Numbered from the stretch's first letter, positions 11,813-62,661 are shown. The stretch: DNA of 64,000 bases from a virus (IMGVR_UViG_3300027733_000039:1-64000), one strand, 5' to 3'. Translations and numbers: made by a program. The notes: generated from the sequence alone by a model not told the origin.

Positions 11813-12103
11813 ATGTCACAAGAATTACATACACCTATTGACGATATCTTAAAAGTCTCAGGAAGTAGTAACCCACAAAGTGTTGGTTCTATTCTTGCTC
11901 GTGCGGTAAACGCAGGACAAGCACCTAAGATGCGTGCTATCGGCGCCAGCGCTGTTAATCAAGCAGCCAAAGCAGCAGCAATCGCCCGAGGCTTTGTTGC
12001 TCCACGTGGTGTTGATCTTACTTATATTATTGGCTTTGATGATATTATTGGAGACAACGGAGAAGCCATTTCGGCTATCTCATTTAAACCAATCGTGAGG
12101 TAG
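11813..12103 (+). CDS. spoVS: SpoVS-family (Alba-like) nucleic-acid-binding protein
   Basis: LKVSGSSNPQSV...RAIGASAVNQAAKAAAIARGF. Confidence 0.9.
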   Translation: MSQELHTPIDDILKVSGSSNPQSVGSILARAVNAGQAPKMRAIGASAVNQAAKAAAIARGFVAPRGVDLTYIIGFDDIIGDNGEAISAISFKPIVR

Positions 12104-17276: not shown

Positions 17277-17535
17277 AGATAATGTGGAGATGGATTTTGA
17301 TGAATGGCTTTCTTTTGGTATGGATCATAAGTTTGTAGGACCTCCAGTGTGTTCCACACACGATGGGATACCGACCACTGAGGACGAAGACGGAGTATGG
17401 GACGAAGGCGGAGACCCTTGTATCCATATTCTTCGCTTGTATGTAGACAAATTGGAAGCCCTCCTCGTAGAGCAAAACCACAGCCCGTCAGTATGGCGCA
17501 AGGCTGGCTGGGAAGAACTACCAACCCAAGAATGA
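17269..17535 (+). CDS. Small hypothetical protein
   Basis: CSTHDG...DPCIH. Confidence 0.6.
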   Translation: MSKDNVEMDFDEWLSFGMDHKFVGPPVCSTHDGIPTTEDEDGVWDEGGDPCIHILRLYVDKLEALLVEQNHSPSVWRKAGWEELPTQE

Positions 17536-18968
17536 AGATCTTCTTTGGCGGAGCGGAGAAGGGGTCATACCGAAAGATGCTCGTGAATGCGGGCGTGCAA
17601 CGCTATGCCCTCAATTTGACTCACTTCCCCATCCCCAAGAAGAAAGAACTAGATCTATCTGCACTCTTTAATGGTGGGGACATCCTTGTCTACACCTCTG
17701 AGAATGACGAAGACATGAATCGTTTTGATACCTTTGTCAGGGACTTCGCAGACTCGCTGTACATGGTCATCGGGCGCCCTGATTATGATGGCGCATGGCT
17801 GGGTGAGAAGTACTACCCATTATGGAATGACGAGAATGATTTAGAGCGCTTGGCTTGGCTCTGTCAGAAGTATGGGCGAGCGGCAGTCAGCGACAAGGCA
17901 GTCACAGGAAAGAATGTGGCTCGTATCGCTTCTATTGCTACTCGCTGGAGCGCCAAGTTAGTGGGCATTACGTCTAAGCCCGACCTCATTGAACGTATCC
18001 AATGGGATACCGTCATCGTAGGCTCTTGGACGAGCGCCATACGCTATGGAGAGACACAGGTATGGGATGGACACGGGTTGCGCAGGTATCCAGCACAACA
18101 AAAGGAATCCGCTCGCAGAAAACATCGTGCTGACATCACCAGACTTGGGATTGATTTTGATGCTGTAATGGATGACAATGTATCCGCCGTTGGAACCCTT
18201 GCGATTGCCTCATGGCAACAATGGGAGACACATACTTTTGGGGGCTATGACCCGATGAATACCGATGATGAGCAAGAATTCAACTCACCTGAAACAGATC
18301 AAACAATTGCTATTCACCCTGATACGCATACCCCCACTTTTCTGGCTTCTGGGGGGTCAACTATTGCTATCAACACCCCAAACAAGCGGCACGAGAATGA
18401 CCGTGTATTGCTACCCGTAATGGGCATAGAAGCGGTCACATCCTTTGGCTCGCAAACCGTTGATACTGAAGGGGAATCAATAGAAATTGACCCTGAAAGA
18501 GTGAACGTAATTCGTTACAATGCTGACCCTTTACGACAGTGCGACAATTGCTATTTGAGTAACAGATGTCCTCAATTCAAGGAACATTCAGAATGCGCAT
18601 TTAGATTGCCGATTGAGATCCGCACAAAGGATCAATTACAGTCCGCTATGAGAGCGCTTATTGAGATGCAAGTAGGACGTGTTATGTTCGCACGCTTTGC
18701 TGAAGAACTAGAAGGACAGGGTCTTGATCAATCCCTATCCCATGAGATGGACAGGTTCTTTAATCTCGTAGATCGCTTTAAAGACATCAATGACACCCGA
18801 GACACCATCCGCCTAGAGATGGAAGCCCGAGGCTCTAGTGGTGTGCTGTCTCGCTTGTTTGGTGCCAAGGCTGGAGAGACTAACCGCATGCTGGATGGTG
18901 GCGGTATGGGCAGTAGCGCAACCAACGCTCTATATTCTGAGATACTGGATTTGTCCGAAGATAATTGA
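17532..18968 (+). CDS. Degenerate TGT/DpdA-like barrel fused to a Cys4 Zn finger and a helical domain
   Basis: MKIFFGGAE, SW...RYG..QVWDG; CDNC....RCP.......C; ATGA coupling at 17532. Confidence 0.55.
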   Translation: MKIFFGGAEKGSYRKMLVNAGVQRYALNLTHFPIPKKKELDLSALFNGGDILVYTSENDEDMNRFDTFVRDFADSLYMVIGRPDYDGAWLGEKYYPLWNDENDLERLAWLCQKYGRAAVSDKAVTGKNVARIASIATRWSAKLVGITSKPDLIERIQWDTVIVGSWTSAIRYGETQVWDGHGLRRYPAQQKESARRKHRADITRLGIDFDAVMDDNVSAVGTLAIASWQQWETHTFGGYDPMNTDDEQEFNSPETDQTIAIHPDTHTPTFLASGGSTIAINTPNKRHENDRVLLPVMGIEAVTSFGSQTVDTEGESIEIDPERVNVIRYNADPLRQCDNCYLSNRCPQFKEHSECAFRLPIEIRTKDQLQSAMRALIEMQVGRVMFARFAEELEGQGLDQSLSHEMDRFFNLVDRFKDINDTRDTIRLEMEARGSSGVLSRLFGAKAGETNRMLDGGGMGSSATNALYSEILDLSEDN

Positions 18969-20455: not shown

Positions 20456-20872
20456 TTGCCTCAGTTTGAAGATGATTGGAGAGAGCAAGCGCTCTGCAAA
20501 GATCGTCACATTGACTTATGGTACCCACCACTAGACACAGATGTCCCCGAGAACTATTATCTTGTATCTCGTGTTGTGTGTAGACAGTGCCCCGTCTGGA
20601 AAGAATGCTTAGACGATGGTCTTGAAGAGAAGTGGGGCATGTGGGGAGGACTCACACCACAAGAGCGCACCGCATTAGTAGTTGAACACCCGAAGGCAAG
20701 CGTCTTGCGTCCGCATGGAACATGGATGCGGTACAGACAGAGTTGCAGGTGTACAGAATGTGTGGATGCTGAGTCAAAAGAGATTAATAAAATAAATATT
20801 GAGGAGATCCCTAAAATGGGGACAACCCCGATTGACTTGGAGATGCTTAAGTTTAGGTTGATTCCCTCTTAA
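20456..20872 (+). CDS. whiB: WhiB-family transcription factor with an extra C-terminal Cys motif
   Basis: W...ALC, CRQCPV..EC, GMWGGLTPQER; HGT...Y...CRC..C. Confidence 0.9.
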   Translation: MPQFEDDWREQALCKDRHIDLWYPPLDTDVPENYYLVSRVVCRQCPVWKECLDDGLEEKWGMWGGLTPQERTALVVEHPKASVLRPHGTWMRYRQSCRCTECVDAESKEINKINIEEIPKMGTTPIDLEMLKFRLIPS

Positions 20873-22911: not shown

Positions 22912-23241
22912 TTTCGTTCGTTGCTCAGTGGTCATGGATGTCATGCTCTTGCCACCCCATATTCCATACTGGATGTCGTTCTTGATGGCAAAACGAAGGC
23001 ACTGGATCTGCACAGGACAGCCTTTGCATATCTCTTTGGCTTGCTTCTGTGCTTCTATGACAGTCTTAGTCCTGCGTTCGTAAAGCCCAGCAAACCATTT
23101 GTCGGTGCCTTCTTTACGACAGAGAGCGAACTCTCTCCAGTCACCTACTTCAGGGAACTTCAACCCAAGAGTGTCTGAACGCCACCAAGAGTCAGGCAAG
23201 GTGTTAGTGGGGGATTGCTCCCCCACTGCTACCTCGGACAT
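22888..23241 (-). CDS. whiB: WhiB-family transcription factor
   Basis: WREFALC, AKEICKGCPVQIQCL, GIWGG. Confidence 0.9.
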   Translation of the reverse strand: MSEVAVGEQSPTNTLPDSWWRSDTLGLKFPEVGDWREFALCRKEGTDKWFAGLYERRTKTVIEAQKQAKEICKGCPVQIQCLRFAIKNDIQYGIWGGKSMTSMTTEQRTKLKDTFNK

Positions 23242-25811: not shown

Positions 25812-25813
25812 TT

Positions 25814-25933
25814 GAACCTCCTCAGATTCTTTAACTCAGGGGTGTGACACAGTGTCTTCACCCCGTGGATGCTCTACCCCGATCAGTGAGCAGAGCATCC
25901 ACGGGATGACACCAGCCGAGGCTGATGGCACCC
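25814..25933 (-). ncRNA. Cassette leader L1: type-A structured element (divergent) + SD hairpin
   Basis: Minus strand: P1 CATCAGC/GCTGGTG, long P2 CCCGTGGATGCTCTGCTC/GGGTAGAGCATCCACGGG, P3 GACA/TGTC; GAATCT-GAGG-AGGTTC. Confidence 0.7.
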
Positions 25934-25956
25934 TATTACTGGCTCGTACAAGCCTC

Positions 25957-26223
25957 TCAGGACTCGTTTAACGACTCTTTAATCCAATCTAAGTCAATGC
26001 TGTAGAGAAACACAAAGTGTCCCTCGGGTGCACGAAACTTAATGTAACCACCCGAGAAGTCATCTTCAAACTGCTCGTTGACATTGCCGATGTGCTTGAG
26101 TTTGGCTACTTCTTCAACCCCGTAGTACTCGTTGGTATTGACGGAGGGGATCAAGAGACCCGACTCCACCAAGTCCTTACGAACGGTGTAGTACCCGCTC
26201 CCTATTTGAACGAATCGGATCAT
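25957..26223 (-). CDS. Hypothetical protein
   Basis: GGAGG RBS; coupled ORF. Confidence 0.6.
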   Translation of the reverse strand: MIRFVQIGSGYYTVRKDLVESGLLIPSVNTNEYYGVEEVAKLKHIGNVNEQFEDDFSGGYIKFRAPEGHFVFLYSIDLDWIKESLNES

Positions 26224-26420
26224 TGCTCACCTCCGCATCGGCAGTTGCCATTGCATGGAGCGAACTGTGTTTGCCGAGAGTCCCAGCCATTCTCAGTGCA
26301 CTTGACACACCTCCACTCATCTGAAGGTAGGTCAGGTGCTGGTCTGAAGTCATGATTACACATGATCACCACTGTCGGCACCGATCCCTCGGTTTTGAAG
26401 TGTTCCATGACGCTCTTCAT
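26220..26420 (-). CDS. Small Cys-rich protein
   Basis: CNHDF...WRCVKC...CNGNCRC. Confidence 0.55.
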   Translation of the reverse strand: MKSVMEHFKTEGSVPTVVIMCNHDFRPAPDLPSDEWRCVKCTENGWDSRQTQFAPCNGNCRCGGEQ

Positions 26421-26629
26421 ACGAACACCTCTGCTTTAATGATCTTGGCGAAAGGCACTTCAATTTCACGGAACTCACCTTCGCCATGGTGCGGGCTGTC
26501 CTCGGTGAAGATCACCACTGATGTGTCAGTGATGTCCATGACATCTCCGATGTACACCCACTGCTCTTGTGGGTATATCTGCACAAGGAGTTCAACCTGA
26601 TCACCGATGTTGAGACTCAGTGTGTCCAT
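26417..26629 (-). CDS. Small beta-rich hypothetical protein
   Basis: GGAGG RBS; TGATG coupling. Confidence 0.6.
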   Translation of the reverse strand: MDTLSLNIGDQVELLVQIYPQEQWVYIGDVMDITDTSVVIFTEDSPHHGEGEFREIEVPFAKIIKAEVFV

Positions 26630-26916
26630 CAGTAGTCCTCCCCATCGTCAATGAATGACTCAAGATGATGCGAGTCCACGATTGCCCACGCTGGAGCCAG
26701 TGGTTGCCCACGCCACAACACACCTTCAGGGAGTGTGATGTTGACATCGGTATTTCCTGCACTCACATTCTCAATCGCCAGTACGCACACATCAAGCATG
26801 CTCAATGGTACGGGTGGGTAGTGATTGGATGTTAGGTGCCACGAGAGCGCCTGTCGTAGTTCAATGAGACCGTCCACGACAGCATCATTCATTCCTATTG
26901 CATTCATGCTTCCCAT
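26629..26916 (-). CDS. Hypothetical protein
   Basis: HLTSNHYPPVP...IVDSHHLESF; TAATG coupling. Confidence 0.7.
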   Translation of the reverse strand: MGSMNAIGMNDAVVDGLIELRQALSWHLTSNHYPPVPLSMLDVCVLAIENVSAGNTDVNITLPEGVLWRGQPLAPAWAIVDSHHLESFIDDGEDY

Positions 26917-27098
26917 TACTTTGCCTCCTCGGCTGTCCATGGTGCCTCAAAGCCCACGCTCTCTTTCCATTTGAGCGCAACTTCTAGTTCGTCCTCATCA
27001 AGGTGATAGAACTTGTCAAAGGCTTCTGCCTCGGATCTCGCTTCCACCTCGTATCCATAGTCAATGGTTTCATTGACTCTTACTATCCACTTGCTCAT
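26916..27098 (-). CDS. Small acidic protein (VEARSEAEA motif)
   Basis: Directly follows leader L2. Confidence 0.65.
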   Translation of the reverse strand: MSKWIVRVNETIDYGYEVEARSEAEAFDKFYHLDEDELEVALKWKESVGFEAPWTAEEAK

Positions 27099-27102
27099 AA
27101 CT

Positions 27103-27217
27103 GACCTCCTCAGGTCTTAGGGATTAATTAATGTATCGGGCATTGAGTGCCCTCACAACCCACAAACAATGTCTGTGGGCTGTGAGCGCACCATGGCGTG
27201 AGCCATGATGCACCCGA
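27103..27217 (-). ncRNA. Cassette leader L2: type-A element + SD hairpin
   Basis: P1 GCATCATGGC-TCAC-GCCATGGTGC; P2 CTCACAGCCCACAGAC/GTTTGTGGGTTGTGAG; P3 GGGCA/TGCCC; GACCT-GAGG-AGGTC. Confidence 0.8.
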
Positions 27218-27469
27218 TCAGGATGCGTCCTCCAGTTGGTATGAGACAACGATAAAGTCTTCACCGTTGTTGCCCATGAGTCCCTTCAGTTGCTCCTCGC
27301 CATCCTCGCAGTAGAAGAAGATCCGATCATCTCGCTGTCCGAGAGAATCAAAGTCCTCACTGATCTCGTTGTCGTATGAGCCGAACGAGAAGTACCGTTC
27401 GTCCTCCACGCCTGAGTCAAACCACTTGATGACTGCCCATGCACCCATAGGTGCTCCGATGTTGCTCAT
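27218..27469 (-). CDS. Hypothetical acidic protein
   Basis: GGAGG RBS; DDRIFFYC. Confidence 0.65.
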   Translation of the reverse strand: MSNIGAPMGAWAVIKWFDSGVEDERYFSFGSYDNEISEDFDSLGQRDDRIFFYCEDGEEQLKGLMGNNGEDFIVVSYQLEDAS

Positions 27470-27471
27470 TG

Positions 27472-27669
27472 CTATTCCTCCGTTTCTTTGTCAATTTCAA
27501 TCATTTCGTACAACACTTGCTCTAGCACTTCGTTGCCGAGTTCCACGATTCTCTCGTGTACATACCCTTCAACTTCTTCCATTGCTTCAATGGCTTCTTC
27601 TTTTGTCCAGTGTGGGTACATTGCTTTTGCATCTTCCCACGACCACTTCACGACAACTTCAGTTGCCAT
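27472..27669 (-). CDS. Small acidic protein
   Basis: AGGAGG RBS; TAATG coupling. Confidence 0.65.
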   Translation of the reverse strand: MATEVVVKWSWEDAKAMYPHWTKEEAIEAMEEVEGYVHERIVELGNEVLEQVLYEMIEIDKETEE

Positions 27670-27911
27670 TAGAAGCCTCCTTCTTCTTCATTAATTGATT
27701 GGTACAGGTTATTCCAAACCTCTTCGTTCACTGAGTCATACCCGCCTTCGGCGTCAAACTCTTGAATGGCTTTGAGCCATTCGTCTGAGTCTGCCGACAA
27801 TGGTTCTTCAGGTGTACCTGTAGAGAATAAGTCTGATTCCCACCAAGAGATAGCGATCTCTTCGTCAGGATTGATCTCACTCAACAGTTCAATTGCTTTG
27901 CTTACCTTCAT
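27669..27911 (-). CDS. Hypothetical protein, paralog of 28087..28446
   Basis: MKVS..I..L...PDEE.AI.W...W.KAI. Confidence 0.65.
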   Translation of the reverse strand: MKVSKAIELLSEINPDEEIAISWWESDLFSTGTPEEPLSADSDEWLKAIQEFDAEGGYDSVNEEVWNNLYQSINEEEGGF

Positions 27912-28087
27912 TGCTGTTCTCCTTTGTAGGTTGCTTCTAATGTTCTTTCATCCCATCCAATGATGGATGCTTCGCTTGCTGTTGTGATGTAATCCATTGC
28001 ACACACCATGTCATTGTTATCGCTGTATGTTTCTATTGCTAGGACGAGTGTGACCTCAACCAGTTTGGTTGTTGCTAATGCTTTCAT
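27908..28087 (-). CDS. Small hypothetical protein (59 aa, not in the ORF track)
   Basis: MKALATTK...GEQQ*; AGGAGG RBS; coupled at both ends. Confidence 0.55.
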   Translation of the reverse strand: MKALATTKLVEVTLVLAIETYSDNNDMVCAMDYITTASEASIIGWDERTLEATYKGEQQ

Positions 28088-28446
28088 TACTTGCCCTCCT
28101 TTGGGCTTTTGATCTCTGACACGATGTCAGACATCCACTTGATGTTGTATGCGTTGATCTTCTCAATGGTGCTGAGAACATCGGGCACGACTTCGCTTAC
28201 TGGCTCACTGTGTTCCTTCAAGCATTCAAGGATGTCATAGAGCGTCTCGTTGGCGTATTCATCCAACAGTTGAAGCCAAGACATCTGATTGATTGCTTCG
28301 CTCCAGTGGTCTGCCGATGGGGCTTCTTGATACCCAGTCTCTTCGTCAGGAACAGTGAAGTCATTGCGATCAAGCCACCTGATGAGCAATTCATCATCGG
28401 GCTGGTACACAGCATTCAACACATTGATTATTGCACTTACTTTCAT
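28087..28446 (-). CDS. Hypothetical protein, paralog of 27669..27911
   Basis: MKVSAII.VL...PDDELLIRW...WSEAI; follows leader L3. Confidence 0.7.
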   Translation of the reverse strand: MKVSAIINVLNAVYQPDDELLIRWLDRNDFTVPDEETGYQEAPSADHWSEAINQMSWLQLLDEYANETLYDILECLKEHSEPVSEVVPDVLSTIEKINAYNIKWMSDIVSEIKSPKEGK

Positions 28447-28449
28447 GGC

Positions 28450-28553
28450 GCCTCCTCAGGCATTACTTAATTGAACATCGGATGATGTTCTGACAATACA
28501 TTATCGGTGTGACAATGTACTGTCAGAACACCACGGACTTGCGCCCGTGATGC
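28450..28553 (-). ncRNA. Cassette leader L3: type-A element + SD hairpin
   Basis: P1 GCATCACGGGC-GCAA-GTCCGTGGTGT; P2 TCTGACAGTACATTGTC/GATAATGTATTGTCAGA; P3 GAACATC/GATGTTC; GCCT-GAGG-AGGC. Confidence 0.8.
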
Positions 28554-28556
28554 ACT

Positions 28557-28638
28557 GATGGTGTACCTCCATGAGGACAGAGGCACCCCGATAGTCGCTA
28601 CTGGCGCCGACCATGATGGCGCCGAGCGCCAATGATCA
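28557..28638 (-). ncRNA. Reduced type-B element plus a relic SD hairpin with no ORF
   Basis: TGATCAT-TGGCGC...GCGCCA-GTAG-CGA(CTA)TCG, then GTCCTCATGGAGGTACACCATC. Confidence 0.55.
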
Positions 28639-30165
28639 ACCGCCGTTACCGACAATCCCATCAATGAGTGACTGGGTGATGCTTCCACCCTCGGCACCCA
28701 TGTCCTCACCGTATCCCGTTAGTACTGCGGATACCGCTTCGTGCTTTGCATTCAACAATGCCCACATACGATCATCAATCGTAGGTGTCGCATCGCTGTT
28801 GCTGTCTACAGCCAAGAGCCACCACGCCACGACAGAGTTGACCTGTCCAATGCGGTGTGCTCTATCTTCCGCCTGTGTGGCGGACGATGGTGTCCACGGC
28901 ACCTCAGCCATCACGACATGGGACGCACTCGTAAGAGTGAGACCCACACCAGCGCTGTCGTAGTTGCCGATGAACACCTTGGCGTCACCTGTCATGAAGT
29001 CATCTACTGACTTCTGCTTCTCAGCATCACTCATGCCACCGACTACCTTGACCACTCCGTGCTGTTGTAATGCATCGGAGAGACCACTGATGACATCCCT
29101 GTGATGACCGAACACGATGACCTTCTCGCCTTGAGCGACAAGTTCTTCTACATGCTCAACCACATAGGGGATCTTTGCGATACCGAGTTGGTGACGTAGT
29201 GCATTGAGCCGTGTGATGACCTCTGCTTTGGATGCCTTCTGCCATGCTTCAACACCGCCATTGGCGATGACAAAGTCACGGAAGTCATTCTCAGCATGTC
29301 GGTATGCCTTGAGGTCAGTCTCGCTGATCTCTACAGCAACCTGCGCACGGCGCTTGGCTGGGAGTTCCGTCAACACATCTGTTTTGTTACGCCTCACATA
29401 GCAGGTGCCACGCAATTTGTCATTCAATTCAGTTGTGTTAGTCGCTCCGTTGTACACATAACCCCAACCATTGTGGATGGGTTCGCAGTAACGAAAGAGG
29501 AACGCTGACTTGCCACCGAACACTCGGTCAAGTCTGCCAATCAATGACAGAGGTGACACCAGTTCGTTGGGTCTGTTCACGATGATCGTGCCCGAGAGCA
29601 ACAGCACATACCCTTCAGTCGGAATTGACTTTGCGATGTATGCCACGCCCTTGGTGCGTCCACTCTTAGCGCTCTTCAAGCGATGTGCTTCATCAACGAT
29701 GAGGCAACCAAACTTACCCGTGAACTTCATTGCCCATGCATTGATGATTGAGTCACCAACGATCACGACATCAGTTTGAGGTAGAGCGCCAACCTTGTTG
29801 CCCTTCACGATGGCTACAGTGAGCCATGGTGCGAACATCTTCAGCGAGCGCTCCCAGTTTGTGCGAAGAGATGCAGGTACAACGATGAGGACTTTGTGCC
29901 CTTCGTTGTGCGCATTCACTGCGACTGCGATTGCTTGTGGAGTCTTACCGAGACCCATCTCGTCACCCAAAATACAACGCTTCTGCTTGATCGCATAAGC
30001 GACACCAGCACGCTGGAATGGATAGAGAGGCTCGGCGAGGTCTACAAGGGTCTCGCTGTCATGTGCACTGCTCAGAGCATGTAATGAAGCGTCAGGCAAA
30101 ATTGCTGGCGCCACACGATCAAGCCCCGAGAGTAACGCACTCAGTTCTTCTAATTGTGTATTCAT
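28636..30165 (-). CDS. SNF2-family helicase (SMARCAL1/HARP-like)
   Basis: LYPFQRAGV, GDEMGLGKT, VDEAH, LSGT, GVGLTLT, QAEDRAHRIGQ. Confidence 0.92.
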   Translation of the reverse strand: MNTQLEELSALLSGLDRVAPAILPDASLHALSSAHDSETLVDLAEPLYPFQRAGVAYAIKQKRCILGDEMGLGKTPQAIAVAVNAHNEGHKVLIVVPASLRTNWERSLKMFAPWLTVAIVKGNKVGALPQTDVVIVGDSIINAWAMKFTGKFGCLIVDEAHRLKSAKSGRTKGVAYIAKSIPTEGYVLLLSGTIIVNRPNELVSPLSLIGRLDRVFGGKSAFLFRYCEPIHNGWGYVYNGATNTTELNDKLRGTCYVRRNKTDVLTELPAKRRAQVAVEISETDLKAYRHAENDFRDFVIANGGVEAWQKASKAEVITRLNALRHQLGIAKIPYVVEHVEELVAQGEKVIVFGHHRDVISGLSDALQQHGVVKVVGGMSDAEKQKSVDDFMTGDAKVFIGNYDSAGVGLTLTSASHVVMAEVPWTPSSATQAEDRAHRIGQVNSVVAWWLLAVDSNSDATPTIDDRMWALLNAKHEAVSAVLTGYGEDMGAEGGSITQSLIDGIVGNGG

Positions 30166-30170
30166 GGTTA

Positions 30171-30262
30171 TACCTCCTCAGGTAATTGTTATGGACTTGC
30201 GTCCTCACAGCACACGAGCATACCCGTGTACTGTGAGCACGCCACACCGTGAGGTGTGACGC
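30171..30262 (-). ncRNA. Cassette leader L4: type-A element + SD hairpin
   Basis: P1 GCGTCACACC-TCAC-GGTGTGGCGT; P2 CTCACAGTACACGGG/CTCGTGTGCTGTGAG; P3 GGAC-GCAA-GTCC; TACCT-GAGG-AGGTA. Confidence 0.8.
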
Positions 30263-30269
30263 CCTCGGG

Positions 30270-30995
30270 CTAGAAGCCCAACCTGCTTGCGCAGTCATTG
30301 CCGATGCCACGCTTGCGTGTCACCTCATCAGTGAGATGCCGACCGCACGCACCACACTGTCCAATCTCTTGACCGAACAGCGCCTGTGCTTGCTTACGAC
30401 CCTCGTCCGTGAGACCTGCAATGCGCTTGATCGCATGCAGAGCACGCTCACCCGACAACTTTGCATCCTTGTGACCACCAACGACCATGTAAATGCTTCG
30501 CTGACCCTTCATGGAAGGATTATGGAAGCCCTTGTTGGTCTTGATGGCGTAGAACACGAGGTCATTGGTGCCCGATGATGTCATCGCATAGAAGCCATCA
30601 GCAATGGTGCCGAAGGATTCATTGGTCAACTTGTCGGGGACGATAGCGCTCTCCGCAGAGCAGTCACCTTGCTTGTGGTAGGTAGCCCACTTGCCTGCAT
30701 TGAGCAATGCGTGACCAGTACCTGTCCGCACTGGATGCCCACAGAGGGCACACGGGTTGGCGTACTTGTTTACGATGATGCGCTCTGCTTTGGGCAAGTG
30801 ATCTGTGCCCACACGCTTGACTTCAATCTTGCGAATGGCGTCAATGGCGAATGATGCTGACTTGGCAGTGAGTTCATTGAGTGTGTTATCGGTGATGTAC
30901 TGATCCACTTGCTCTTCGTTGAGACCAAGTGTTGAAGCACGCTCCAATAACAGCGTCTTAATGAACGCCTGTTGCTTTGGTGTTATTGCACCCAT
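30270..30995 (-). CDS. DUF6011-like Zn-finger protein
   Basis: TPKQQAFI N-terminus, NKY..PC..CG, C-terminal CGACGRHLTDEVTRKRGIGNDC. Confidence 0.75.
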   Translation of the reverse strand: MGAITPKQQAFIKTLLLERASTLGLNEEQVDQYITDNTLNELTAKSASFAIDAIRKIEVKRVGTDHLPKAERIIVNKYANPCALCGHPVRTGTGHALLNAGKWATYHKQGDCSAESAIVPDKLTNESFGTIADGFYAMTSSGTNDLVFYAIKTNKGFHNPSMKGQRSIYMVVGGHKDAKLSGERALHAIKRIAGLTDEGRKQAQALFGQEIGQCGACGRHLTDEVTRKRGIGNDCASRLGF

Positions 30996-30999
30996 GGTG

Positions 31000-31112
31000 A
31001 GAACCTCCTCAGATTCTGTTTTGTATGTGTAGGTGGACTTGCGTCCTCGTGATGCATCAGTTGGGGGAACCGATGTACCACGAGCACGCCACGACTCACG
31101 CCGTGACTGCCC
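31000..31112 (-). ncRNA. Cassette leader L5: type-A element + SD hairpin
   Basis: P1 GTCACGGC-GTGA-GTCGTGGC; P2 CTCGTGGTACATCGGTT/AACTGATGCATCACGAG; P3 GGAC-GCAA-GTCC; AGAATCT-GAGG-AGGTTCT. Confidence 0.8.
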
Positions 31113-31124
31113 ATTGCTGATTAC

Positions 31125-31379
31125 TCACGCATTGGCGAGTTGGGAAGTGATGTTTGCAATTGCTTGCCACAGCACTGTCTCCATGTCAACGGTGTCACTG
31201 ACGAACAGCGTGATCGTTGACTCCAACTTTGCGTAACCGAATGACTCTTTGTCCTGCTCCCACTGGGGACGGCTGAACGCCAAATCTTCGTACTCAATCA
31301 CGAGATCAATCGTCTTGAGACATGGGTTATCGGACTTCTCAATCCGTAACCCAGTTACTTTGTGAATACTTGCATCCAT
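31125..31379 (-). CDS. Hypothetical protein
   Basis: Single-gene cassette after L6. Confidence 0.7.
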   Translation of the reverse strand: MDASIHKVTGLRIEKSDNPCLKTIDLVIEYEDLAFSRPQWEQDKESFGYAKLESTITLFVSDTVDMETVLWQAIANITSQLANA

Positions 31380-31382
31380 GGT

Positions 31383-31483
31383 GCCTCCTCAGGCTTTGTT
31401 AGTTGGGCACATTGTATGCCCTCACAATGCACGAGCCAACGCCCATGCACTGTGAGGACACCACGAGTTCACACTCGTGATGC
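31383..31483 (-). ncRNA. Cassette leader L6: type-A element + SD hairpin
   Basis: P1 GCATCACGAGT-GTGA-ACTCGTGGTGT (the loop contains the upstream stop codon); P2 CTCACAGTGCATGGGC/GCTCGTGCATTGTGAG; P3 GGGCAT/GTGCCC; GCCT-GAGG-AGGC. Confidence 0.8.
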
Positions 31484-31945
31484 ATCGGTCAGCCTCCACT
31501 GACCTGATTGAAGTTGGAAACGCTCGTACAAGGTGTGCAGTAGTGATGCATGCTGTATTGAGATGTGATCTCGCACGATGTTCACGAACGCATGACGCCA
31601 GCACTCATTGTGCCCACGCTCGCCACATACAATGTGAGCAAGTTCGTGAGCCAGTGTGAGCACTGTCGTACTGGAGCCACTGATGCCGATGATACTTCGC
31701 TTCTCATCAGCGACACCTGCCCACTTGGTGGAGCGTATGCGATCAACCACGGGCGTATTCCAGCCCTCGGTCTCACACACACGATCCAGCCAAGCGTATG
31801 CATCCTTGGTGGCGATCACTTGCGATGGCAAGTAACGAGACACCACATGCTCTATTGCGTACACCGTGGCTTGATGCTCGGGCATCTTGGGAGAGCGCTT
31901 CTCAACGCTCCCCCGTACCTCGTCAATGTAGGCGTGAATGCTCAT
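31469..31945 (-). CDS. HExxH metallohydrolase (TIGR04338/SprT-like)
   Basis: VYAIE, LAHELAH...GH...W. Confidence 0.75.
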   Translation of the reverse strand: MSIHAYIDEVRGSVEKRSPKMPEHQATVYAIEHVVSRYLPSQVIATKDAYAWLDRVCETEGWNTPVVDRIRSTKWAGVADEKRSIIGISGSSTTVLTLAHELAHIVCGERGHNECWRHAFVNIVRDHISIQHASLLHTLYERFQLQSGQWRLTDASRV

Positions 31946-32631
31946 CGTCCGAGCGCTCCAGCGACACCGTTACCGATGCCACCACTGGAGAACGAAAGAC
32001 CAGCACTACGACCAGCCGAGTACCCACTGCCCGATGAATATCGGGAGTAGCCAGCAGACTTGAGCGATACTTTCGCACGCATCTCAGTGTCTGCACGCTT
32101 GAACTTGTCAGCGAGTACCAAACCAGTGCCAACACCTTGCTCTGCGATCACTTCGTTCTTGGACTTGGTCAACACTTCACGCACACCCGCCGAGAATCCC
32201 AGCCACCACGCACTGCGGAATGACCGATCACCCTTGGGGATCACACGAGAAGCGAGCAAGTCTGCCGATGCGAACAGCGTCCTGACAGCGAAGATGTCAC
32301 CTGCGGTGCCATACACCACCAGCGACAACACCTTCTTACCATCTTTCCACGATGTGGAGCGATAGCAAGCGACTGAGTTGGCTTTGGCGATCGCTCCAGC
32401 GAGTGCTAGACGGCGAAGTTGCCATTTGCCACCAACTTCAATGATGTTGGTCACGATGTTCTCATTGCGATCTTGAGCCTTGGCGAATGCGGACTCTTCA
32501 AGACCGTGCTTCATCATCAACTTCTGTGCCATGGCGAGAGCCGTTTCGGCTTCCGCTTGTGGCGTGTTGGGATGATTGGCACGATCAAGGATTGCCTGCA
32601 CCTTGTCATAGATTGCTTCTGATTTATTCAT
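31942..32631 (-). CDS. DUF2786-domain protein
   Basis: KVQAILDRA..PNTPQAEAETALAMAQKLMMKHGL; R.AWWLGF; SGYSAG. Confidence 0.85.
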   Translation of the reverse strand: MNKSEAIYDKVQAILDRANHPNTPQAEAETALAMAQKLMMKHGLEESAFAKAQDRNENIVTNIIEVGGKWQLRRLALAGAIAKANSVACYRSTSWKDGKKVLSLVVYGTAGDIFAVRTLFASADLLASRVIPKGDRSFRSAWWLGFSAGVREVLTKSKNEVIAEQGVGTGLVLADKFKRADTEMRAKVSLKSAGYSRYSSGSGYSAGRSAGLSFSSGGIGNGVAGALGR

Positions 32632-32635
32632 GGTT

Positions 32636-32736
32636 ATACCTCCTCAGGTATCTAGATTGGGCAAATGCCCACACTGATCACCGACTCACGCCGATGAACA
32701 CTGTGGGCACCACGAGATCGCTCCCGTGATGCTCCC
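32636..32736 (-). ncRNA. Cassette leader L7: type-A element + SD hairpin
   Basis: P1 GCATCACGGGA-GCGA-TCTCGTGGTGC; P2 CCACAGTGTTCATCGGC-GTGA-GTCGGTGATCAGTGTGG; P3 GGGCA/TGCCC; ATACCT-GAGG-AGGTAT. Confidence 0.8.
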
Positions 32737-32752
32737 GACTACCAGTCGCTGT

Positions 32753-33070
32753 TTACTCGCTGTCCTCCTCGTCCTCTTCCGAGTATCCCTCGGGCATTGA
32801 GATCGTAGGGAAGTACACGATGACCGAGTCACGACCCATGCTGTCCGAGCGCACACATCGGAGCAAGATCGTCCCGAGAGTTTGTGCGTTCGCATCAGCC
32901 AATTCAAGACCGAGAATCAAGAATGTTGAAGCCTCGTCCTCGGTCACAATGCCGAAGCACTGGTCTCCGTACATCGCACGACCCGAGTACTGCATGACAG
33001 TGCCCGCTTCGTGTTGATCCAGTATCTCGGTGATCAATTCAAGATCATCTACTGTTAGTTGATATGCCAT
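32753..33070 (-). CDS. Hypothetical protein
   Basis: YSGRAMYGDQCFG...DSMG...IVYFP; single-gene cassette. Confidence 0.75.
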   Translation of the reverse strand: MAYQLTVDDLELITEILDQHEAGTVMQYSGRAMYGDQCFGIVTEDEASTFLILGLELADANAQTLGTILLRCVRSDSMGRDSVIVYFPTISMPEGYSEEDEEDSE

Positions 33071-33073
33071 GGT

Positions 33074-33180
33074 GACCTCCTCAGGTCTGTTACTTGATTG
33101 GGCGAAATGCCCTCACGATGCACCGATCACTTGACCGATGCACCGTGAGGACATCACGAGGTTGCCCCCGTGATGCTCCC
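33074..33180 (-). ncRNA. Cassette leader L8: type-A element + SD hairpin
   Basis: P1 GCATCACGGGG-GCAA-CCTCGTGATGT; P2 CTCACGGTGCATCGGTC/GATCGGTGCATCGTGAG; P3 GGGC/GCCC; GACCT-GAGG-AGGTC. Confidence 0.8.
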
Positions 33181-33182
33181 GA

Positions 33183-33401
33183 TCACGCACTGTGATCAAC
33201 TGAATGGTCGTACCCCTCGGGGTACCACGCATCACCGCAGGTCGCACAGGTGTAGCCATCGGGGTATCCGATGTCCCACGCTTCAGCGAACTCCAGTGCC
33301 TTACCTTCTCGTAAGGCTTCTGCTTGGTAGTAGTCGGCGCACACAAGGCACACCAATTCTCTATCGTCCATCACTTGACCAATTACGACTATGTCCCTCA
33401 T
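33183..33401 (-). CDS. Small Zn-finger protein
   Basis: CLVC...CATCG; ATGA coupling. Confidence 0.6.
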   Translation of the reverse strand: MRDIVVIGQVMDDRELVCLVCADYYQAEALREGKALEFAEAWDIGYPDGYTCATCGDAWYPEGYDHSVDHSA

Positions 33402-33913
33402 GATGCACTCACCTTGAACTTGGCAACGATCGCCTCAAGTAGAGGCTCACCCTGTCGGGCAGTTGCCATGTCCACACCGAGCAGTGCCGAGACTTGCTCT
33501 ACGAGCGAGTCGTAGTGCGCATCTCGGTCACGCTCTTCGGTGAACGATTCCATCATGCGAATCTGCTCCTCTTCAAGGAACTCATTGAGCGACATCGTGG
33601 TGTAAACACCAGCGATGTCCTGCGGACGCAGTCGGTAGTTGAGACCACTGTTCACCTTCATTGATGGAAGGCGCTCAGGAATGATGTCACCGTTGTACTG
33701 CAATCCTTGTTGACGCCCACGATCTCTTGTGATCGTGCGACCTTTCAACTTGGTGACTTTGCGGGTCTTCGTAGATGAAGTCCTCCACGAGGTGCCCACC
33801 TCCACTTGCTCTTCAAGCACTTCGTCAATGATGAAGTACCCATTGAACTTGGCGCTCATGAAGACCGCTTCGGGACTGACACTCAGAATTGCTCTGATTT
33901 CATTTGCTTTCAT
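33398..33913 (-). CDS. Hypothetical protein
   Basis: Follows leader L9. Confidence 0.7.
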   Translation of the reverse strand: MKANEIRAILSVSPEAVFMSAKFNGYFIIDEVLEEQVEVGTSWRTSSTKTRKVTKLKGRTITRDRGRQQGLQYNGDIIPERLPSMKVNSGLNYRLRPQDIAGVYTTMSLNEFLEEEQIRMMESFTEERDRDAHYDSLVEQVSALLGVDMATARQGEPLLEAIVAKFKVSAS

Positions 33914-33917
33914 GGTT

Positions 33918-34011
33918 GACCTCCTCAGGTCTTATCGTCACGACACGGGATGTGTCGCTAGTCCCCAGTGCTCATTGAAGAGCCACGCCCTAGGCGCTGG
34001 GGGAATGATCA
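33918..34011 (-). ncRNA. Cassette leader L9: type-B (tRNA-elbow-like) element + SD hairpin
   Basis: TGATCAT-TCCCCCAG-CGCC(TAG)GGCG-TG-GCTC(TTCAAT)GAGC-A-CTGGGGA-CTAG-CGACAC(ATCCC)GTGTCG; GACCT-GAGG-AGGTC. Confidence 0.8.
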
Positions 34012-34527
34012 GCCGTATGTGACCTCACCGAGCAGGATGAACTGCACGATGGCATCAGCCACGATGGCGTCACAATCGCACTCAAACTCGTCAATGGCAT
34101 TCTCACCGAACAGGTAGCACCCTGCTAGAGCGCTCACTCGCTTGACTGGTAGTTGACCGTAGTCAGGCACGCTGTCCTGATTGAACTCACCCGTGCCGAT
34201 CTTCTCAATGAAGTCAGCAATGATGGACTCACTGATCACGAGTGGCGTGCCGAAGCGGTAGAACCCGCCCCAACCGTTGAAGCCATCGTCATCGGTCAAC
34301 TTCGCCAATTCGGCTTCGTCTTCCACCAATTCACACGCTTCCATGTCGTACAGAGTGACCGATGCGAAGTGTTCGTTGCCGTCCAATTCGCTTTCGCCCA
34401 GTTCCGTGCCCCATGTGTAGGTGCTGTTGGCAACCGCCCACGATGCGATCCCGTAGGAACCGCCCTCGTACGCAGTGCTCAGGATGCTTGCCCCGAGATT
34501 GAGTAGTTGTTGTCTTGTTGCTTTCAT
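34009..34527 (-). CDS. Hypothetical acidic protein
   Basis: TAYEGG...W; DAIVADAIVQ..LLGEVTYG C-terminus. Confidence 0.75.
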   Translation of the reverse strand: MKATRQQLLNLGASILSTAYEGGSYGIASWAVANSTYTWGTELGESELDGNEHFASVTLYDMEACELVEDEAELAKLTDDDGFNGWGGFYRFGTPLVISESIIADFIEKIGTGEFNQDSVPDYGQLPVKRVSALAGCYLFGENAIDEFECDCDAIVADAIVQFILLGEVTYG

Positions 34528-34530
34528 GGT

Positions 34531-34621
34531 GTGCCTCCTCAGGCATATTCACGACACTTGCGTGTCGCTAGTCCCCAGTACCGATTGAACGGTCACGCCT
34601 GAAGCGCTGGGGGATTGATCA
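34531..34621 (-). ncRNA. Cassette leader L10: type-B element + SD hairpin
   Basis: TGATCAA-TCCCCCAG-CGCT(TCA)GGCG-TG-ACCG(TTCAAT)CGGT-A-CTGGGGA-CTAG-CGACAC(GCAA)GTGTCG; ATGCCT-GAGG-AGGCAC. Confidence 0.8.
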
Positions 34622-34626
34622 CGCAC

Positions 34627-34863
34627 TCAGCCGATCGTGAGCAACGCTGACAGGTACGGCAACTTGACGCCCCTGTTGGCAAGTTCGCTTGCGCAGATCT
34701 CTGCGATTGCATCCTTGATGATCTCTGAGCGGGTGTTGAGACCGTCCGATTTCTTCAGAATGTGCAGGAGTTCTGCATCGCTAAGTGCCCGTACATCGGC
34801 GCTGTAGTGAGCGATGTATTGCTCTCGCTTGCGAATGTTTGCGGGTGTGTTCTTGTATGTCAT
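34627..34863 (-). CDS. Hypothetical protein, first gene of the leftward block
   Basis: Follows leader L11. Confidence 0.65.
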   Translation of the reverse strand: MTYKNTPANIRKREQYIAHYSADVRALSDAELLHILKKSDGLNTRSEIIKDAIAEICASELANRGVKLPYLSALLTIG

Positions 34864-34868
34864 GGTGT

Positions 34869-34993
34869 GTCCTCCTCAGGACTGCACTGGCAGTGAGCCA
34901 GTGGAGCGTGGTGCGCTCAATCAGGACTGGAGCGGGGGAGAACCTCCAGCCCTCATTGAGCGCCACGAGCAAGCCGAAGCAAGCCCGTGACGC
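34869..34993 (-). ncRNA. Cassette leader L11: type-A element + SD hairpin
   Basis: P1 GCGTCACGGGC/GCTCGTGGCGC; P2 CTCAATGAGGGCTGGAG/CTCCAGTCCTGATTGAG; P3 GAGCG/CGCTC; extra CACTGGC/GCCAGTG stem; GTCCT-GAGG-AGGAC. Confidence 0.75.
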
Positions 34994-35072
34994 TGAGGAA
35001 TTTATTGAACCATGTTTTGATTCTTCAGTTGTCAGGAGCGCATGAGCGCCAAGCCAAGCAATCGGCAGAACG

Positions 35073-35184: not shown

Positions 35185-35604
35185 TAGGCAATTGAATAAT
35201 TCTTGAGAATCTTTTGAGCCATGCCCCATGGGCTGGAGCGGGCTGGGGGCTGGAATATGGCGCCCCAAGCGACAGCCATCCATCGGATGGAGGAGGAGAT
35301 AGAGGCATTGGAGGGTAGATCAGGAGATGCCCTGAGAAGCGTCAGGATGCGCTGTGGTGCGATGTACAGCGATATGGAGCGATGGTGCAGTGGATAGCAA
35401 TACAGGCGATTGTGGGGTACGTTGTACACCTACCTATACCCCGCATCCCCTTACCCAGCAAGGGTTATAGCCCTATTCCTAAGCCACTTAGATGCCTCAG
35501 GATGCGTTTAAACGCTGAGAACGCCTCATTGTGCCAAAACGCCTCTGCGCCTCTTAGAACGGCTTAGGAAGCGAGGGCACATGGGTGGGCACCTTGTCAA
35601 CTAT

Positions 35605-35668
35605 TGTGACGAATGTCACACGATTGTTACACATGGTGTGACGAACGACACATGTGACGAACGACACA
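35605..35668. promoter_or_regulatory. Three CRP/GlxR-type boxes in a 16-bp register
   Basis: TGTGA-CGAATG-TCACA at 35605; TGTGA-CGAACG-ACACA at 35637 and 35653. Confidence 0.65.
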
Positions 35669-35691
35669 TGGGGATAAGGCGCCCCTAACTA

Positions 35692-62205: not shown

Positions 62206-62661
62206 ATGGCACCACGACCTAAACCAGGATTAAACAAGTCGGCAAGAGAACGTTTTGCTGAAGGTTTAAACTATTATTCAGGTCAAGGTCTCATCCAAGA
62301 AGAGCGTGCTCGTACTCGTGCAAACGAGAGAACATTCACACCCAGCACATTAACTCCTATTCCGTGGGACCCTAACACCACCTACTACCATCCACCTGAT
62401 GAAAGTAGTCGTGTAGAAGCCTTTCGTTATGTTGCTTTAGAAGGAACCTCTGGCGCTGTTGGTTACAACGGCACTCTCTTTGTTCGTTTTATTAAACATG
62501 GCACCCCATGGAAATACTTAAATGTTCCCGCACATATTTACCAATCATTTGCGTCGGCTCAGTCAAAAGGGCGCTATATTAACTCGGTACTCAATAACTT
62601 TCCAAACAGTAGGGCATCGGGCGATGAAGAGAGCACGTTTTTCGTACAATCTCAAATGTAA
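62206..62661 (+). CDS. KTSC-domain protein
   Basis: SSRV...Y...LFVRF...Y.NVP..IY..F..A.SKGRYIN; TAACAT-N6-ATG. Confidence 0.75.
   Translation: MAPRPKPGLNKSARERFAEGLNYYSGQGLIQEERARTRANERTFTPSTLTPIPWDPNTTYYHPPDESSRVEAFRYVALEGTSGAVGYNGTLFVRFIKHGTPWKYLNVPAHIYQSFASAQSKGRYINSVLNNFPNSRASGDEESTFFVQSQM

Follow-up and report, generated by a model that had tools for sequence, protein, structure and literature searches.

The window, that is, the whole 64,000-nt stretch of viral DNA that was analysed, contains eleven Shine–Dalgarno (SD) hairpins of one shared class, and the chances are about even that they are the last element of a portable, standard mRNA leader, which acts in cis and opens each gene cassette. 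The DNA belongs to an uncultured freshwater phage with a 97-kb (97,131-bp) genome. The motif CTGAGGAGG has 11 exact matches in the window, all of them on the minus strand. Shuffled windows contain 0.44 on average and never more than 3, which makes the motif 25-fold overrepresented; 12 copies are present in the whole genome. Complementary bases flank each of the eleven copies and form stems of 4–7 bp, written in DNA letters as GACCT/AGGTC (three sites), (T)GCCT/AGGC (three), TACCT/AGGTA (two), GAATCT/AGGTTC (two) and GTCCT/AGGAC (one). The spacer from AGG to ATG is 4–8 nt, the start codon is ATG at all eleven sites, and CC stands immediately 5′ of it at nine. The sequence-only reading had already reported eleven SD hairpins of a single class, with the same stem counts and the same nine CC-ATG sites, and the recount agrees with these numbers; its limits of 25814 and 34882 are the outer ends of the hairpins (Table 1).

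Table 1. SD hairpins and associated elements of the cassette module, in window positions.
Feature	Position	Strand	Start codon and first ORF	Remarks
SD hairpin 1, GUCCU-GAGG-AGGAC	34869..34882	(-)	ATG 34863, 78 aa	
SD hairpin 2, UGCCU-GAGG-AGGCA	34532..34545	(-)	ATG 34527, 172 aa	P(stem) at least 0.97
SD hairpin 3, GACCU-GAGG-AGGUC	33918..33931	(-)	ATG 33913, 171 aa	
SD hairpin 4, GACCU-GAGG-AGGUC	33074..33087	(-)	ATG 33070, 105 aa	cassette order differs in relative L001
SD hairpin 5, AUACCU-GAGG-AGGUAU	32636..32651	(-)	ATG 32631, DUF2786 protein, 229 aa	
SD hairpin 6, GCCU-GAGG-AGGC	31383..31394	(-)	ATG 31379, 84 aa	P(stem) ~0.6
SD hairpin 7, AGAAUCU-GAGG-AGGUUCU	31000..31017	(-)	ATG 30995, DUF6011 protein, 241 aa	one U·G pair
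SD hairpin 8, UACCU-GAGG-AGGUA	30171..30184	(-)	ATG 30165, SNF2-type helicase, 509 aa	
SD hairpin 9, UGCCU-GAGG-AGGCG	28449..28462	(-)	ATG 28446, 119 aa	one U·G pair; P(stem) 0.31 in full context
SD hairpin 10, GACCU-GAGG-AGGUC	27103..27116	(-)	ATG 27098, 60 aa	
SD hairpin 11, GAAUCU-GAGG-AGGUUC	25814..25829	(-)	ATG 25811, 114 aa	one U·G pair
First-cassette leader element CAUGGU...UUCCUCAG	34993..35014	(-)		MFE structure and pairing probabilities
Eleven-cassette module	25812..35034	(-)		gene chain, gaps, leader folds

The placement of the motif follows the gene organisation of the module at 25.4–34.9 kb, which is non-structural and presumably early. It precedes all 11 genes that come after a gap of 89–189 nt, and none of the approximately 11 translationally coupled genes. 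A cassette consists of a structured intergenic leader filling this gap, the SD hairpin, the first ORF and sometimes coupled ORFs. Within the gap, serial stable hairpins (including GGGCA..UGCCC, GGAC-GCAA-GUCC and CGACAC-GCAA-GUGUCG), which hold sense-strand G·U pairs, are followed by an unstructured A/C-rich linker of 8–20 nt and then by the SD hairpin. No Rfam family matches the leaders, and the gaps are enriched neither in sigma-70 promoters (7 promoter-like sites against 10.9 expected, only one of the 7 falling within an intergenic leader) nor in canonical, U-tract terminators. Compared with a relative of about 95% identity, 9 of the 16 synteny-block ends have a hairpin no more than 36 nt away (p = 1.5e-7). 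One cassette, flanked by a hairpin on either side, is reordered in the relative. The hairpin site is also where cassettes recombine among related phages, and the leader end of about 20 nt, being common to all cassettes, provides a site for their exchange, insertion and reordering.

That the stem itself is under selection, as had been claimed before, is borne out by 99 distinct sites in related uncultured phages. Stem positions 4–5 covary strongly, and positions 6 and 17 are paired in 93 of the 99 sites (AU 50, GC 24, UA 10, CG 7). The covariation score is 0.314, whereas shuffles give 0.108 ± 0.011, with none of 500 reaching the observed value, and a slid register gives 0.104 at most. Since G·U pairs occupy 17 cells of the stem alignment, it is as sense-strand RNA that the structure is read. 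At apparently the same genes on different contigs, the stem changes with pairing kept, for example UUACCU/AGGUAA and GUACCU/AGGUAC at hairpin 8. The loop had been described as an invariant GAGG, which is correct for this genome but not across the family, where loops such as AGAGG, CGAGGA, AGAGGAG and the UUAAGG type are found in hairpins that are nevertheless retained, and altered forms include CCU-AGAGG-AGG, GUCUU-GAGG-GAGAC and GGAGC-AGAGGAG-GCUCC. The fold with the SD inside a hairpin persists across the family despite the sequence change.

As for the energetics, the hairpins have energies of -5 to -9 kcal/mol, compared with -11.5 to -14.1 kcal/mol for pairing of the SD with the 16S tail. 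In the full intergenic context, the predicted probability of the hairpin is at least 0.93 at seven of the eleven sites and below 0.8 at four. Among the latter is hairpin 1 (P = 0.03), which loses to the upstream UUCCUCAG: the first-cassette element CAUGGU...UUCCUCAG, kept in all relatives, complements both CUGAGGAG (the SD) and ACCAUG (the start), so that a long-range cis anti-SD helix is predicted there. If the 5′ arm of the hairpin is made unavailable, the SD pairs with varied other partners (P 0.40–0.69). The hairpin pairs three of the seven bases of the SD, so that on the whole the SD is paired to about the same extent as it is in the alternative folds; what the hairpin offers is uniformity and not more exposure. 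The major head protein gene has an analogous conserved SD hairpin, and for this reason the design is not simply repressive and is compatible with high expression. The description of these SDs as "locked" is not supported, in view of the weak hairpins and the head gene of the same design, and the proposed competing hairpin between CC before ATG and the distal GG receives a pairing probability of at most 0.03 at all eleven sites.

In the cis model, the conserved purines GAGGAGG(U) constitute an extended 8-nt SD able to pair with the 16S tail ACCUCCUU, the 5′ half GAGG being displayed in the tetraloop and the 3′ half AGG(N) being held in the stem by the upstream CCU and 1–4 freely covarying pairs. 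The 30S subunit would nucleate on the open loop and then unzip the weak stem, so that the first ORF of each cassette, which would have to recruit ribosomes anew after long and heavily structured intergenic RNA, would obtain a uniform, context-independent start site. The hairpin may also shield the purine-rich SD from capture by the many upstream CCUC-containing arms, and we infer a contribution to mRNA stability as well as early timing of the module. Such insulation leaves two facts unexplained, namely that CCUGAGGAG is invariant at the SD of the replication initiator, which cannot form the hairpin, and that exactly one antisense copy of the motif is kept per genome.

Other functions of the hairpin have been weighed against translation in cis. 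It could be a 5′ mRNA stabiliser, arising after cleavage of a polycistron in the A/C-rich linker upstream of the SD hairpin, where the hairpin with bound 30S would guard the new 5′ end against the 5′-dependent RNase E and RNase J, while the message before it would be protected at its 3′ end by the upstream hairpins. In Gram-positive bacteria, stabilisers that join a 5′ stem-loop to a strong SD are well established (aprE leader, cryIIIA STAB-SD). In the phage, every gap contains the serial hairpins, the linker and then the SD hairpin, and gaps with neither sigma-70 promoter nor canonical terminator enrichment fit a single long transcript. But no RNase III is encoded by the phage, and the hairpin of the major head gene comes after a terminator-like hairpin and not after a leader of the cassette type. 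Stabilisation, which could operate alongside translation in cis, appears rather unlikely. The RegB family of nucleases (PF10715), of which T4 RegB cuts GGAG in early SDs, has no match in the phage. The sequence GGAG is contained in GAGGAGG. It is very improbable that the motif is a DNA-level signal alone (a recombination site or a protein-binding palindrome) with no RNA function: the coincidence of synteny breakpoints with the motif would suit such a signal, but the 17 G·U cells would turn into A·C mismatches if the opposite strand, or a DNA palindrome, were the functional form, the motif keeps strict sense orientation at a fixed 4–8 nt from ATG, and its core is an SD. A protein operator, at which SpoVS, the KTSC-domain protein or a CsrA-like factor would block or promote initiation, is hardly more credible. 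RNA hairpins bound by proteins typically combine a fixed loop with a stem that covaries, and SpoVS is a member of the DNA/RNA-binding Alba superfamily (PMC11621453), the phage protein matching PDB 2EH1. Both SpoVS and KTSC, the binders suggested earlier, occur in all four large relatives, but these are so close that the co-occurrence carries no weight; SpoVS is encoded within the replication module and KTSC among the genes for tail fibres, and nothing ties either to the hairpins. The SD and the pairing account for every conserved base, so that nothing is left which requires contact with a protein, and loop sequence and size differ among relatives. The analogy with CsrA/RsmA operators, to which the leaders are similar in having small GGA-containing hairpins at the SD that recur on several mRNAs, is likewise not supported. 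In a Pfam search over all six frames of the complete phage record, the CsrA family (PF02599) has no match, the host is probably actinobacterial, judging from two WhiB genes in the phage, and Actinobacteria are not known to have CsrA. In addition, GGA straddles loop and stem, the loop being GAGG and the A beginning the 3′ arm of the stem, and inspection of the folds reveals no second, consistently placed loop GGA in the upstream leader hairpins.

A shared switch of all cassettes is possible, and the sole concrete candidate found for it is an RNA, not a protein. The 12th copy of the motif lies outside the window, on the opposite strand and not at a gene start. The candidate RNA is a putative minus-strand transcript of genome positions ~94140 to 94040, the 5′ leader of a Dps-like operon, which shows AACCUCCUCAGG, the exact complement of CCUGAGGAGGUU, and also has a 15–17-nt loop mimicking the 16S 3′ tail. 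The hairpin SD may accordingly be a shared operator at which this anti-SD RNA would repress or time the leaders and the replication initiator together; this is a possibility well short of an even chance, and it does not conflict with the cis model. In each of five large genomes, a one-strand array is accompanied by exactly one opposite-strand copy (11+1, 6+1, 10+1, 4+1, 11+1), while the reversed-pattern control gives 0 in them. The antisense copy sits in a structured element of ~95 nt, for which RNAalifold predicts a minus-strand fold of -44.4 kcal/mol whose 30 pairs are all intact, whereas the plus-strand fold has 26 pairs, 7 broken cells (A·C and A·G) and an energy of -35.8 kcal/mol; compensatory changes are seen at five pairs, CCTGAGGAGGT is invariant across ~20 homologs with diverging flanks, and a TAnnnT hexamer lies upstream at a fixed distance on the minus strand in 11 of 11 distinct homologs. 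The 16S-like loop is predicted to be fully unpaired (P(unpaired) at least 0.98), and accessibility-corrected binding is predicted at -8 to -11 kcal/mol for 8 of the 11 leaders and -10.6 kcal/mol for the initiator gene, compared with -1.4 or weaker for controls. The initiator SD retains CCUGAGGAG though no hairpin can form there, and chaperone-independent sRNAs with C-rich loops in actinobacteria provide a precedent (6C, PMC6486639). However, the ranking of targets involves a circularity, the segment being the complement of the motif, and since the segment never varies, its co-variation with the targets cannot be shown. In the relatives G008 and G006, many leaders are altered (AGAGG loops and others) while the antisense segment is unchanged and the hairpin fold is kept, which means that the hairpin is selected independently of a perfect antisense match. 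The segment is also partly paired (P unpaired 0.09–0.22 at CCU and 0.01–0.49 at AGG), tetraloops are poor kissing partners, and the element could act solely in cis on its own operon. No relevant Rfam match to the RNA (e.g. 6C) was obtained at E up to 10. Expressed as a model, to be held tentatively, the 11-nt tag CCUGAGGAGGU (the hairpin SD) would mark the eleven exchangeable cassettes, and the replication-initiator gene would be marked by the 9-nt core of the tag, CCUGAGGAG, all under the control of one RNA. This conserved, promoter-proximal RNA, in which the tag complement is joined by a copy of the 3′ tail of host 16S rRNA, would bind the tagged leaders, and strong SDs generally, leading to shut-off or timing of translation. 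If this is true, a new cassette would become part of the regulon once recombination had placed it behind the tag.

Several known systems resemble parts of this arrangement. Small anti-SD RNAs with C-rich loops are represented in Gram-positive bacteria by the RoxS/RsaE type. Like 6C of Mycobacterium (PMC6486639), which likewise belongs to a host group without Hfq, the RNA at 94 kb exposes C/U-rich segments, unpaired in the predictions, that match the G-rich SDs of several mRNAs. It differs in being phage-encoded, in that one segment is exactly complementary over 11–12 nt to a leader tag specific to the phage and a second reproduces as much as 11 nt of the 16S 3′ tail, and in that it seems to be a 5′ leader and not a terminated sRNA.

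The SAS/ESAS motif of Cluster K mycobacteriophages (Pope et al. 2011, PMC3203893; survey of 188 genomes, PMC12699233) is similar in many respects: it is a short conserved motif with an SD core and symmetric outer bases (GGG...CCC in SAS), located 3–7 nt before the start, with a strong preference for ATG, and occurs in 11–19 copies per genome, in a single orientation and at non-structural genes only, also in phages of Actinobacteria. An inverted repeat lies upstream of about half of the SAS sites (PMC3203893; PMC12699233), and single reverse copies have likewise been reported (Pope et al., PMC3203893), just as eleven sense copies in one module and one opposite-strand copy away from gene starts are found here. 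The sequences are nevertheless unlike (CCUGAGGAGG vs GGGATAGGAGCCC), and the present motif does not match the SAS consensus GGGATAGGAGCCC (Cluster K genome) with up to 2 mismatches. Here the stem covaries and the upstream repeats behave as RNA hairpins with G·U pairs, whereas the ESAS arms show no support for RNA pairing and have been proposed as DNA-binding sites; no antisense partner has been described for SAS, and the present phage, with a 97-kb genome and myovirus-type baseplate genes, has no nucleotide similarity to any sequenced phage record. The element appears to work like SAS, whose function was still unknown in 2025, but it is not a SAS member. The PeSL (promoter-early stem-loop) cassettes of T4-type phages (Arbiol et al. 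2010, PMC2839356) likewise recur as regulatory units that separate small non-essential early genes and serve as junctions of modular shuffling, in agreement with the block ends and the reordered cassette described above. PeSL consists of a strong sigma-70 promoter and a terminator hairpin, neither of which is enriched here, whereas the conserved junction in the present phage is the ribosome-binding-site hairpin itself.

The motif CTGAGGAGG occurs 11 times in the window, 11/11 on the minus strand, whereas dinucleotide-preserving shuffles average 0.44 copies and never exceed 3; the whole genome contains 12 copies. Read on the minus strand, each window copy has complementary flanks and forms a hairpin N(1-4)CCU-GAGG-AGGN'(1-4) of 4–7 bp that holds the Shine-Dalgarno sequence (SD) and ends 4–8 nt before the ATG in each of the 11 cases; the stem-variant counts, the CC before ATG at 9/11 sites and the outer coordinates 25814 and 34882 of the sequence-only reading were all reproduced. 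For placement, the minus-strand ORFs were chained from 35283 down to 23241. In the 25.4–34.9 kb stretch, the hairpin stands at 11/11 genes that follow a true intergenic gap (89–189 nt), and about eleven internal genes that overlap or abut the stop codon before them have ordinary SDs with no such hairpin. The last two gaps at the downstream end of the chain are also without the hairpin. Since it is present after all 11 gaps and absent at coupled genes, the hairpin is the mark of the first ORF in each of eleven cassettes.

The stem was examined in a fixed-register alignment of 99 distinct sites, from which the sequences used in finding contigs were left out. Pair 6-17 is paired in 93/99 sites, where every Watson-Crick combination is represented (AU 50, GC 24, UA 10, CG 7), pair 5-18 is paired in 73/99 with six pair types, and pair 7-16 is C-G in 84 sites and U-G in 11. 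The covariation score was 0.314 versus 0.108 +/- 0.011 in shuffles, 0/500 of which reached the observed value, and it was at most 0.104 in slid registers. In addition, apparently the same genes on different contigs have changed the stem and kept the pairing (AUACCU/AGGUAU versus GUACCU/AGGUAC), so that the earlier proposal of a selected stem is borne out over the 99 sites. The structure belongs to the sense-orientation RNA, because its G.U pairs would become A.C mismatches on the opposite strand. The complete relatives G006 and G008 were taken as an unbiased view of the leaders, the structured intergenic RNAs before each cassette: in G008, five leaders have CCU-AGAGG-AGG and another has GUCUU-GAGG-GAGAC, and in G006 there are GGAGC-AGAGGAG-GCUCC, GACC-CGAGGA-GGUC and AAACUU-GAGG-AGGUUU. 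Therefore, the GAGG loop described as invariant is so among the window copies and not across the family, where loops of AGAGG, AGAGGAG and CGAGGA also occur, and the conserved feature, judged from these alignments, is an SD in a small hairpin, split between the loop and the 3' arm.

GAGGAGGU can pair over 8 positions with ACCUCCUU of the 16S tail GAUCACCUCCUUUCU, which we take to be the actinobacterial tail. This pairing of the SD and the stem together account for all invariant bases. The tail itself is widely conserved (PMC6288834). The hairpins have energies of -5 to -9 kcal/mol versus -11.5 to -14.1 kcal/mol for the SD:tail duplex, which speaks against the idea that the SD is locked. When the full intergenic region and 60 nt of coding sequence were folded, the hairpin was predicted at P >=0.93 at 7/11 sites with the loop unpaired, and the competing hairpin that had been proposed between the CC before ATG and the SD guanines fell away, with P <=0.03 everywhere. 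If the 5' arm is kept from pairing, the purines of the SD find a variety of other partners (mean P 0.40–0.69); in the free state, SD pairing with anything but the hairpin's own arm does not exceed 0.04 at seven sites or 0.18 at nine, the exceptions being 34863 (0.84) and 28446 (0.65). In the first cassette, the SD is predicted to be captured by an upstream CAUGGU...UUCCUCAG. This segment, whose bases complement the SD and also ACCAUG, lies ~120 nt upstream of the SD and is kept in all relatives; the hairpin P there is 0.03. At the major head protein gene (ATG at genome 72283), a perfect hairpin of 7 bp, UAAUCCU-AGG-AGGAUUA, contains the SD; it is kept in four relatives with the loop AGG or UAGG, and the hairpin-SD design is thus compatible with heavy translation.

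Each gap contains serial stable hairpins, including one of 15–20 bp with sense-strand G.U pairs, followed in order by a small hairpin, an A/C-rich linker and the SD hairpin. An Rfam search of the module, the minus-strand cassette region, gave no relevant family. Within it, neither sigma-70-type promoters (7 promoter-like sites versus 10.9 expected) nor U-tract terminators are enriched, and one promoter candidate in a good position precedes the entire module. This is most simply read as a single long transcript whose intergenic elements are at the level of RNA. When the module was compared with a relative ~95% identical in shared blocks, 9/16 synteny-block ends lay within 36 nt of a hairpin versus 6.5% expected (binomial p = 1.5e-7). 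The cassette with gene 32753-33070 has a hairpin on each side and a different order in the relative, and a 246-bp insertion starts directly after another hairpin. These cassette junctions are similar to those of PeSL-mediated shuffling (PMC2839356), but lack the promoter of PeSL.

The twelfth motif copy lies between a leftward operon (54-aa protein, 74-aa protein, DUF6321 protein and Dps/ferritin-like protein) and, to the right, a replication-initiator gene at 94241 with the SD CCUGAGGAGC. Here the minus strand is predicted to encode a structured RNA, the 94-kb element, with ~20 distinct homologs and no relevant family in an Rfam search. For the same ten homologs, RNAalifold gave 30 pairs, none broken, at -44.4 kcal/mol on the minus strand, and 26 pairs with 7 broken cells (A.C, A.G) at -35.8 kcal/mol on the plus strand; five pairs of the element show compensatory changes, and a TAnnnT hexamer stands upstream at a fixed distance on the minus strand in 11/11 distinct homologs. 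The predicted RNA has an outer stem of 16 bp, a junction segment AACCUCCUCAGG exactly complementary to the leader tag, and a hairpin with a loop predicted to be fully unpaired; the loop sequence is CUUUCCCUCCUUUCA in this genome and ACCUCCUUUCU in four relatives, copying 9 nt and 11 nt of the 16S tail, respectively. Five large genomes each have a one-strand motif array and exactly one opposite-strand copy (reversed-pattern control, 0); the more distant array-bearing contigs are 14–46% complete, too little for the lack of an antisense copy there to be informative.

The viral record, of which the window is the first 64 kb, is a single sequence of 97,131 bp rated complete by CheckV. Megablast found no match to the module in 50,697 phage records, and protein searches gave distant relatives only (identity <=36%), mostly actinophage; helicase relatives in IMG/VR (~97% and ~80% amino-acid identity) and many other contigs have the same arrays. 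The host is likely actinobacterial, since there are 2 WhiB-family genes, the DNA polymerase and helicase are closest to actinophage counterparts, and the sequencing runs listed as containing the phage are all freshwater or lake DNA metagenomes, with no RNA run among them. A protein atlas search for the host returned viral clusters only, and no tRNA genes were found. Six-frame Pfam searches of the phage gave no match to RegB, RNase III or T7-type RNA polymerase, the control genomes for the last being likewise without signal.

How, then, could the hairpins act? The reading to which we would give about an even chance is a structured-SD leader acting in cis: it would make de novo initiation, and perhaps 5' stability, uniform from cassette to cassette, and it also serves as the junction for cassette exchange. 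Another, possible but rather doubtful, is a tag-defined regulon that would be controlled by the conserved anti-SD RNA, the 94-kb element. With duplex energy and opening energies added together, its junction segment has a predicted binding energy of -8 to -11 kcal/mol for 8/11 leaders and of -10.6 kcal/mol for the leader of the initiator gene, with controls at -1.4 or weaker. As the segment complements the motif itself, this ranking of targets is circular; the cofold value of ~0 to -4 kcal/mol was discarded, as cofold forbids pairing of a segment inside the outer stem. The initiator SD keeps CAACCUGAGGAG invariant though it is unable to form the hairpin, which argues for such control. On the other side, relatives have changed many leaders with the antisense segment unchanged, yet the hairpin is kept, and no variant of the segment was found among 94-kb-type elements sought without requiring the motif, so that co-variation with targets cannot show.

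The CsrA/RsmA-type operator of the sequence-only reading is not supported: a six-frame Pfam search of the complete record found no CsrA, the host is likely actinobacterial and the CsrA family is not known from Actinobacteria, GGA straddles loop and stem, and there is no recurring second loop GGA upstream. Of the binders suggested there, SpoVS, an Alba-superfamily protein (PMC11621453), matches PDB 2EH1; SpoVS and the KTSC protein are both kept in four relatives, a co-occurrence that carries no weight because these are too close.

Among described systems, SAS/ESAS of Cluster K mycobacteriophages come closest. Start-associated motifs of this kind, repeated in the early regions of phages, have been known since 2011 with no mechanism to explain them, and the resemblance is one of behaviour and not of sequence or lineage (PMC3203893, PMC12699233). 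The present case is unusually clean, in that the motif is a selected RNA hairpin, contains the SD itself and is the cassette recombination point, and it offers a concrete candidate for a trans-acting factor, namely a predicted RNA that carries both the exact complement of the motif and a mimic of the 16S tail. If the anti-SD RNA link is true, one translational control would cover an ever-changing accessory gene set, and a compact portable RBS and antisense pair for actinobacteria would be at hand.

Positions of the features in the window and the genome; L135, L136 and L151 are further DNA pieces (this genome or contigs of relatives)
Feature	Position	Strand	Setting
SpoVS	window 11843-12085		replication module
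phrog_887 gene	window 17397-18968	+	
WhiB-family gene	20477-20677	+	
WhiB-family gene	22945-23139	-	
SD hairpins at coupled genes	window 27912-27925, 27671-27684 (-); L151:9880-9903 and homologs		internal genes
Three-way-junction leaders	window 33914-34011, 34528-34629	-	
CAUGGU...UUCCUCAG	window 34993-35014	-	first cassette
TGTGTCGTTCGTCACA/TGTGACATTCGTCACA repeats	window ~35600-35669	-	module head
TTATCCACA, two copies	window ~35741, ~35782		
Promoter candidate	36097-36068		upstream of module
KTSC protein	window 62458-62592		among tail-fibre genes
Major head SD hairpin	genome 72262-72278; L136:8262-8278	+	outside window
Extra ~130 nt	genome 93897-94035	-	between anti-SD element and 54-aa gene
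Structured RNA (94-kb element)	genome ~94040-94140; L135:1041-1145	-	
Twelfth motif copy	genome 94113-94121	+	divergent intergenic region
TATAGT	94146-94151	-	
TATAGT	~94179-94184	+	
TAGCAT	94196-94201	+	

Several minor observations concern the same regions. Some translationally coupled internal genes have small SD hairpins of their own (GCCC-AAAGGA-GGGC, AGAAG-GAGG-CUUCU and ACCUU-GAAG-GAGGU, the last kept in four relatives). Two leaders differ from the long-hairpin type of the other cassettes and have a common three-way-junction fold CCCCAG...CUGGGG around two hairpins; in one of these the UUCAAU loop is invariant and the stem covaries (CCG/CGG versus GCUC/GAGC). At the module head, two tandem copies of TGTGTCGTTCGTCACA and a related third one, TGTGACATTCGTCACA, adjoin a TTGACA hexamer and look like an operator-like inverted-repeat array; TTATCCACA is DnaA-box-like. 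One of the WhiB-family genes closes the minus-strand module, and the queuine tRNA-ribosyltransferase-like gene (phrog_887) suggests possible 7-deazaguanine DNA modification.

Near the 94-kb element, the extra stretch present here holds a 32-codon basic ORF (MCKTCGCG...KKK), and in those relatives whose outer stem is of the GGTTG type, the 54-aa gene has no SD and its ATG comes at most ~20 nt after the element. The -10-like hexamers TATAGT (minus strand) and TAGCAT (plus strand) stand back to back, and the two TATAGT copies, one on each strand, make up an inverted repeat (CACTATAC...GTATAGTG); the stretch 94146-94201 looks like a divergent promoter/operator region shared by the replication initiator and the anti-SD RNA.
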